Below, piece after piece: positions 62,660 to 63,121 of a stretch of DNA of 64,000 nucleotides. Positions within the stretch are counted from its first letter, which is position 1; each line of letters begins with the position of its first letter. Both the position numbers and the translations under genes were made by a program. Origin of the DNA: a bacterium (GTDB lineage: Bacteria > Orphanbacterota > Orphanbacteria > JBJXGV01); contig JBJXGV010000073.1 of assembly GCA_046160485.1 (NCBI GenBank), positions 12,076-76,075 of the forward strand, read 5' to 3'. Below the pieces are notes generated by a model. It did no database searches. It was not told where the DNA came from and was given only the letters and a program-made list of their open reading frames with translations.

Positions 62660-63121
62660 ATGCCCGCGATCAACGTCGGCGATGCCGCTCCCGATTTCAC
62701 GCTACGGGATCATATGCGGAACGATGTGACGCTCTCTGCGTTCCGCGGCCAGAAGAAAATCGTGCTCGCGTTCTATGTGTTCGCGTTCACCGGTGGCTGA
62801 ACTCGCGAGCTGCAGGCCTACCAGCAGAACGTAAGCGCGCTGGAAGCGGCCGACACCCAGGTTCTGGGTGTGAGCATGGACAGTCCATTCGCGAACAAGG
62901 CGTTCGCCGAATCGATCGGCGTCACGTTCCCGCTCTTGAGCGATTGGGGAGGCGATGTGACGCGCGCGTACGGCGTCTACAACGAAAAAGAGAAAGCGCC
63001 GCGCCGCGTGACGTATCTCATCGACAAGACCGGCAAGGTGACGTCGATGCAAGTCGACAAGGACGCGGTGGATCCGACAGCGATCGTGACCGAGTGCACG
63101 ATCGGCGCGCCGAAGAAGTAA
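62660..63121 (+). CDS. Peroxiredoxin (Bcp/PrxQ-like) with an in-frame TGA at the peroxidatic-cysteine position, a candidate selenocysteine-containing PrxU-like protein
   Basis: A GGAGGAGGAAG RBS precedes [15 protein letters not shown]...[15 protein letters not shown][TGA 62798..62800][38 protein letters not shown]... The two tracked ORFs 62582..62800 and 62870..63121 are in the same frame and together reconstitute a full-length Prx. Its F-T-x-x-C-T-x-E active-site motif reads F-T-G-G-U-T-R-E. Confidence 0.65.

Follow-up and report, generated by a model that had tools for sequence, protein, structure and literature searches.

A probable selenocysteine-containing AhpE-like peroxiredoxin with two conserved hairpins downstream of its in-frame UGA codon

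Introduction

Is an in-frame TGA that falls exactly on the catalytic residue of a peroxiredoxin the mark of a decaying gene, of a codon read as a standard amino acid, or of a selenocysteine (Sec) codon? This question is raised by positions 62660-63121 of the forward strand of a 64,000-nucleotide stretch of bacterial DNA (hereafter the window), taken from contig JBJXGV010000073.1 of assembly GCA_046160485.1 (positions 12,076 to 76,075; lineage Orphanbacterota). A first-pass annotation had joined two open reading frames (ORFs) at this place into a Bcp/PrxQ-type peroxiredoxin and proposed it as a PrxU-type selenoprotein. From comparisons with relatives and structured homologues, we consider it probable, at roughly 0.88, that the product of 62660-63121 is a cytoplasmic AhpE-like peroxiredoxin of 153 residues, with UGA codon 47 decoded as Sec.

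The first Sec-peroxiredoxin to be characterized was PrxU of Eubacterium acidaminophilum, which is of the Prx1/AhpC type. Zhang et al. (2006 Genome Biol, PMC1794560) counted twelve bacterial Sec-peroxiredoxins, attributed to five independent Cys-to-Sec events; for Acidobacteria they reported four selenoproteins, belonging to three families. In a 2026 review, Prx (PF00578, TxxU) is placed above the group “predicted with high confidence”, on the strength of the review's reference 83 (PMC13188914). Since it combines a PF00578 domain, a UGA at the TxxU site and Cys-containing homologues, the window gene falls under the working definition of a Sec-peroxiredoxin. Such proteins are thus already known and a specialist would expect genes of this kind; the unusual point here is the spacing of the selenocysteine insertion sequence (SECIS).

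Results

A complete peroxiredoxin gene read through one UGA

The ORFs 62582..62800 and 62870..63121 do share one frame, and translation from the ATG at 62660 gives a complete coding sequence (62660..63121, forward strand) of 153 codons followed by TAA, read through a single UGA. This sole internal stop is the TGA of codon 47 (62798..62800), embedded in the motif FAFTGG-TGA-TRE, and the protein terminates in CTIGAPKK. A purine-rich candidate Shine-Dalgarno sequence, AGGAGGAGGA, can be read at 62640..62649, 10 nt 5' of the ATG. Domain searches were run on the reconstituted protein with Cys substituted at the TGA position, and the Pfam AhpC-TSA domain (PF00578) covered residues 6-129, unbroken across the TGA (E=2.8e-37, 127.8 bits). 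The proposal that the two ORFs together make up a full peroxiredoxin is thereby upheld.

The best relative of solved structure is AhpE of Mycobacterium tuberculosis (Rv2238c, E=5e-27), and the TGA aligns with the peroxidatic Cys of its LAFTGIC motif, exactly where the first-pass annotation had located it (F-T-G-G-[TGA]-T-R-E). The putative Sec codon therefore occupies the peroxidatic position, held by Cys in distant homologues. Two further active-site residues align with AhpE counterparts: Thr44 (codon ACC, 62789..62791), of the T-x-x-U active-site motif, with the Thr of LAFTGIC, and the conserved peroxiredoxin Arg116 (63005..63007), an invariant column of our alignment A1, with the Arg of IANRGTF. 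Near the C-terminus, Cys146 (codon TGC, 63095..63097), the candidate resolving residue, is also invariant in A1 and is encoded as Cys (TGC or TGT) in 156/156 Sec-type genes.

The family assignment of the first-pass annotation was modified by these searches. The seven top-ranked PDB entries belong to the AhpE family (six Rv2238c/MT2298 sequences and 4xih, E=5e-27 to 5e-26), archaeal Bcp structures score behind AhpE, and public records label relatives of the window protein “ahpE” or “mycoredoxin-dependent peroxiredoxin”. Against the NCBIfam Bcp and PrxQ models the protein reached 80.5 bits for a cut-off of 140 (NF006960) and 60.4 bits for a cut-off of 260 (NF053650), respectively, and against the PrxU model NF040737 it reached 77.7 bits for a cut-off of 270, matching model positions 35-174 of 233. 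Judged by similarity, the protein belongs with AhpE and is a member of neither PrxU nor Bcp/PrxQ. The Bcp/PrxQ label is thus withdrawn; the PrxU label keeps its functional sense, a Sec at the peroxidatic site, but not that of family membership.

No hydrophobic N-terminus, and hence no signal peptide, is encoded upstream of the window protein, whereas 149 of 151 relatives do have a signal peptide. Because of this absence, the protein is predicted to be cytoplasmic, in a clade whose members are mostly exported.

Conservation of the TGA among relatives

DNA was gathered for 80 loci from GTDB contigs (one genome per species) and for 80 from metagenomes, the fetched loci being mostly from Terriglobia, with some from Binatia and Udaeobacter. 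TGA occupies exactly codon 47 in 161/161 Sec-type loci, including 80/80 species-level genome loci; the proteins share 64-73% identity with that of the window and are distinct from one another. A codon-by-codon comparison of 156 distinct genes revealed that amino acids are kept and synonymous sites vary on either side of the TGA, from which it follows that both halves are translated. Immediately before the TGA the pattern differs: the Gly codons are held at GGT in the relatives (143/156 at position -1 and 125/156 at position -2), which read ACC GGT GGT; the window (62789-62797) has GGT GGC for the two glycines. This synonymous constraint may be a context effect on recoding.

Cys-type homologues, with TGC or TGT at the site, were recovered for six proteins (among loci L081-L090), their DNA being obtained gene by gene; no Cys paralogue was found in the 80 genome loci. 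On contig L090 (104-1009), a Sec paralogue devoid of signal peptide directly follows a secreted Cys paralogue. The tandem Cys/Sec arrangement is seen on both L090 and L093, and its Sec copy and the window gene fall in one subgroup; in the window, the place of the Cys copy is taken by an enolase-superfamily enzyme. Neither this enzyme nor the downstream neighbor of the peroxiredoxin gene, a MORN-repeat protein on the opposite strand, offers a functional link to it.

The public databases bear the imprint of this codon. Among 5.8 billion proteins, the closest entries (72-79% identity) are fragments of ~103 amino acids whose Met start lies four codons past the TGA, and the full-length matches whose sequences were read carry Cys or W at the site. 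These fragments and W entries indicate that gene callers trip over the same codon throughout. Deposits with Trp at the site or with a 103-residue “ahpE” include our records P0030-P0120 and P0074/P0125 (MCU1306336.1, MCU1287060.1). Altogether, the orthologues appear to be systematically misannotated across metagenome-assembled genomes (MAGs) of soil Acidobacteriota, and we infer that the W calls fit a gene-calling pipeline that translated TGA with a different code table.

Two conserved hairpins downstream of the TGA

RNAalifold applied to an alignment of 77 distinct sequences (A2) predicted two local hairpins 3' of the TGA, H1 (62819..62845) and H2 (62849..62875), both on the forward strand. 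H1 is delineated by this prediction together with pair counts and synonymous constraint, and H2 by fold energy, covariation, synonymous constraint and its loop pattern. In the window, H1 has a 5-bp core (CCAGC 62821-62825 with GCUGG 62839-62843) and a 13-nt loop; in relatives the stem extends to 7 bp (UUCCAGC/GCUGGAA) around a 13-nt loop. Counted from the UGA, its stem begins at 18 nt and its loop at 25 nt. The loop measures 13 nt in 119/152 sequences and has a G in its first two positions in 105/152, with no conserved base. H2 consists of an upper stem of 8 bp, ACACCCAG (62853-62860) pairing with CUGGGUGU (62864-62871), and a lower stem of 2 bp, GC with GC. Its loop, which begins 60 nt past the UGA, is GUU (62861-62863), or GGUUC once the closing pair opens, and follows the pattern GUN/GGUNC.

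Conservation of both hairpins is backed by compensatory changes and by constraint at synonymous sites. Over A2, H1 and H2 together are 98% paired and display 23 cells in which both sides have changed, where shuffles give 7.7±2.1 (0/500 shuffles reach 23), and shifting the pairing partners lowers pairing to 19-42%. Covariation takes the form of CG-to-GC swaps in H1. Among 152 sequences, the closing pair of H2 is GC in 111, AU in 33 and GU in 8, with zero breaks, pair 63-79 changes from CG or UG to UA in 11, and pair 64-78 from AU to GC in 2. Codons that contribute to the stems are nearly fixed, namely Phe+7 (TTC, 149/149), Gln+8 (CAG, 156/156), Leu+14 (CTG, 154/156) and Glu+15 (GAA, 152/155) in H1, and Thr+19 (ACC, 153/154) and Gly+23 (GGT, 147/156) in H2, the last in a gene where GGC dominates all other Gly codons after the TGA. 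Loop codons vary freely, with entropies of 2.0 bits at Leu+11 (H1) and 1.9 bits at Val+21.

The window copy of H2 has a folding energy of -14.9 kcal/mol (z=-3.65), matched by 0/200 shuffles, and H2 formed in 152/152 context folds. The window copy of H1 reaches -7.4 kcal/mol and contains an A·A mismatch, the window having TAC where relatives have TTC. No long-range lower stem joining H2 to the UGA appeared in an RNAalifold analysis of 156-nt segments from 152 sequences, which returned only the two local hairpins.

The hairpin to which the first-pass annotation had drawn attention (CUGC A GG CCUA CC A GCAG, 62810..62827, forward strand) does exist and is part of the minimum-energy fold of the window, but it is not conserved: in 77 sequences 71.9% of its cells are paired, 246/500 shuffles do as well and it shows no covariation beyond shuffles. 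It was therefore rejected as a SECIS. The search for a SECIS downstream of the TGA, which the same annotation had suggested, brought out H1 and H2 but no known SECIS family: Rfam found none in the whole window at the gathering threshold (tRNA-Met was the sole hit) and none in a permissive scan of 62700-62950. The single match of the latter, to mir-2062 at 62769-62846 (+), spans the TGA and H1 and scores 18.6 bits for a gathering threshold of 90 (E=0.19); we regard it as a chance match in a hairpin-rich stretch.

The Cys-type genes served as controls, which are few and non-independent and hence only suggestive. The L082 gene and the Cys paralogue of L090 have neither hairpin, and L083 lacks H2 and has a partial H1. 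Both hairpins occur in L081 (482), on a contig of very low coverage, and L086 (729) retains H1 together with the greater part of H2; these two genes look like recent Sec-to-Cys conversions with fossil SECIS elements. A hairpin resembling H2 is also present in L088, where codon choice may account for it. The Sec copy of L090 carries both hairpins, including one pair compensated from AU to GC.

Another gene interrupted by an in-frame TGA

The first-pass annotation had also pointed to a second in-frame TGA in a redox protein of the window, and such a gene is indeed present on the reverse strand at 12895..14397, with its TGA at 14233-14235. It is a candidate UshA-like “PCGU” selenoprotein gene fused to a multihaem cytochrome c domain, and its product is predicted to be an exported metallophosphoesterase with four CxxCH motifs and the sequence GYLEPCG-TGA-SHAQSGG. 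The NCBIfam model NF041198, “UshA-like (seleno)protein”, scores 258 bits on it for a cut-off of 275 (E=1.6e-76), and the UshA-like family is listed as a CxU selenoprotein (PMC13188914). A canonical SECIS hairpin lies at 14202-14221 on the same strand (GUCGGGC-GGUCU-GCCACGAC, loop at +22 to +26). Both the TGA and the hairpin are kept in three homologues (L172-L174, 55-80% identity), with compensatory change; the closest homologues (75-87% identity) are called from downstream of the TGA. Together with its canonical SECIS, this gene argues that the source organism decodes Sec.

A screen based on GC3 (G+C content at third codon positions) also returned a TGA-split ORF pair at 15352-16206 (+), which was discarded as Arg-rich nonsense, the antisense shadow of a gene at 14455-16494 (-).

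Which hairpin is the SECIS

The consensus model of the bacterial SECIS (bSECIS) gives a UGA-loop spacing of 16-37 nt, a loop of 3-9 nt, an upper stem of 4-16 bp and an energy limit of -7.5 kcal/mol (PMC13188914). H2 fits in loop (G-G-U-U-C), in its 8-bp stem and in energy, but its spacing of 60 nt lies outside the range. H1 fits in spacing, at 25 nt, but its 13-nt loop exceeds the size limit and has no conserved G. The exact GGUCU loop occurs at H2 in eight relatives. Because its G-GUN-C apical loop matches both the bSECIS consensus and the GGUCU loop of the other candidate selenoprotein gene of the window, H2 is most likely the SelB-binding part of the SECIS.

How H2 could act from 60 nt is a matter for more tentative interpretation. 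Subtracting the 27 nt of H1 from the 60 nt leaves 33 nt, within the canonical range, and one possible arrangement, which we put forward with reserve, is a non-canonical two-hairpin bSECIS in which H2 binds SelB and H1 is a foldable spacer that brings the effective distance to ~33 nt. Sec might instead be inserted with H1 as the functional SECIS, H2 being kept for peptide or codon constraint, mRNA stability or ribosome pacing. The loop of H1 does start within the 16-37 nt range, no codons of the gene are more strongly fixed than those of the H1 stem, H1 shows CG-to-GC swaps, and an H2-like hairpin survives in some Cys-type homologues. This assignment nevertheless seems the less likely one to us, given that the H1 loop is usually too long for the 3-9 nt rule and free in its bases, that the window copy is weak and outcompeted by another fold, and that the consensus G-G/U loop, resembling the canonical SECIS loop of the UshA-like gene, sits in H2.

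Discussion

Why the TGA is best read as selenocysteine

The reading of codon 47 as Sec, already advanced in the first-pass annotation, is now backed by the conserved TGA, the Cys homologues, the selection acting downstream of the TGA, the conserved hairpins and a second gene of a selenoprotein family in the same window. Decay of the gene after a chance nonsense mutation at the catalytic Cys codon might be invoked, since the frame is interrupted by the TGA and the Sec machinery is not seen in the window. The first-pass annotation had already judged a chance hit on that codon unlikely, and we consider decay highly improbable: the same TGA is found in all 161 Sec-type loci from different species, Cys stands in its place in distant homologues, and both halves of the gene are conserved as protein, with purifying selection, synonymous variation and no further stops or frameshifts. 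Moreover, hairpins specific to TGA-bearing genes are conserved, and the loci, being mutually different, are not copies of one contaminant.

A UGA read as a standard amino acid, through a reassigned code (Trp or Gly), near-cognate read-through (Trp) or Cys insertion, could be defended by the W placed at this position in some public gene calls and by the fact that the Sec assignment rests on sequence. It is, in our opinion, very unlikely. TGA terminates 8 of the 39 predicted genes of the window, some with Pfam domains ending just before it, so it is an ordinary terminator here, which excludes a reassigned code. An enzyme with Trp or Gly as its peroxidatic residue would be dead, and yet the gene has been conserved; Cys in the homologues makes the classic Sec/Cys pair; and SECIS-like hairpins are present.

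Several observations weigh against the Sec reading or its SECIS component. The Pro of the PxxxTxxC/U motif is replaced by Val40 in the window protein, and by Ile or Val across the clade, Cys forms included. Searches of the 64-kb window with Pfam (40 ORFs, namely 36 of the 39 predicted genes and four further ORFs), ARAGORN and Rfam found no selA, selB, selD or tRNA-Sec, tRNA-Met being the only tRNA. Neither hairpin agrees with the bSECIS model in all four features. H1 is missing from the minimum-energy fold of the window in context, displaced by the 62810-62827 hairpin. Finally, 3/6 Cys-type homologues retain an H2-like hairpin, and therefore part of H2 could reflect the T/A-Q-V-L-G peptide combined with codon usage.

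Proposed decoding and reaction cycle

If codon 47 is indeed decoded as Sec, SelB carrying Sec-tRNA(Sec) would bind an mRNA structure 3' of the UGA, presumably H2, and deliver Sec to the ribosome. H1, or in the window possibly the 62810-62827 hairpin, would fold between the UGA and H2 and shorten the effective distance from 60 to ~33 nt. Based on general peroxiredoxin chemistry, the selenolate of Sec47, placed by Thr44 and Arg116, would reduce the hydroperoxide and be converted to a selenenic acid, which Cys146 would resolve into a selenenylsulfide; a thioredoxin-like or glutaredoxin-like reductant would then regenerate the enzyme. Human PRDX5 has an atypical 2-Cys arrangement with Cys47 and Cys151. 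The 99-residue spacing between Sec47 and Cys146 recalls it, by analogy and as a lead only.

Comparison with known systems

With the bacterial Sec-peroxiredoxin family, the window gene shares the AhpC/TSA domain, the UGA in T-x-x-U, the existence of Cys homologues and a hairpin 3' of the UGA. The clade to which it belongs differs in being AhpE-like, in having Val or Ile instead of Pro, in its invariant C-terminal Cys and in the hairpin loop located at 60 nt. PrxU of Eubacterium (Peptoclostridium) acidaminophilum, a thioredoxin-dependent peroxiredoxin, likewise has Sec in place of the peroxidatic Cys, but its profile, NF040737, has 233 positions against 153 residues here; PrxU is a functional analogue of the window protein, not an orthologue.

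M. tuberculosis AhpE (PDB 1XXU, 1XVW, 4X0X, 5ID2) has the same length of 153 amino acids, the same N-terminal and active-site layout (AFTGxC) and the conserved Arg. It is, however, a Cys-using 1-Cys enzyme, whereas the window protein has UGA/Sec and the invariant Cys146; AhpE retains the Pro in FFPLAFTGIC where the window protein has Val. The alignment with AhpE ends at residue 130, the C-terminal 20 residues being different, with no counterpart of Cys146. At the RNA level, H2 shares with the canonical bSECIS (E. coli fdhF type) an upper stem, a small G-then-U loop and an energy well below -7.5 kcal/mol, and departs from it by its distance to the UGA and by the additional conserved hairpin, H1, in between. 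A limited literature search, which is weak evidence, found no description of an AhpE-like Sec clade or of a two-hairpin, long-distance SECIS.

Implications for annotation and for selenocysteine decoding

The peroxiredoxin and UshA-like genes together mark the source organism as a probable Sec user. Most of the closest public protein entries of the clade are miscalled, being C-terminal pieces of 103 residues or showing Trp as the catalytic residue, and the clade is common in soil Acidobacteriota, so that annotation pipelines seem to overlook a widespread selenoprotein. Should the two-hairpin arrangement be correct, it would make up a bSECIS class of its own, one that escapes the standard search rules of 16-37 nt, and might partly explain the truncated “ahpE” annotation in Acidobacteriota and other soil MAGs. 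The conserved layout of two hairpins also bears on how much variation in the UGA-SECIS distance bacterial SelB can tolerate.

Other features of the window

Two further regions of the window are reported here as separate observations. An ORF of ~870-890 amino acids at 58624-61305 (+) has a creatininase match in its C-terminal 240 residues only, the N-terminal ~600 residues having no Pfam match at E<=1e-5. At 929-9633 (+), a Pho cluster comprises a response regulator, a PAS/HAMP histidine kinase, a phosphate-selective porin O/P and a PstS-like protein, accompanied by two permeases, an ABC ATPase and PhoU.

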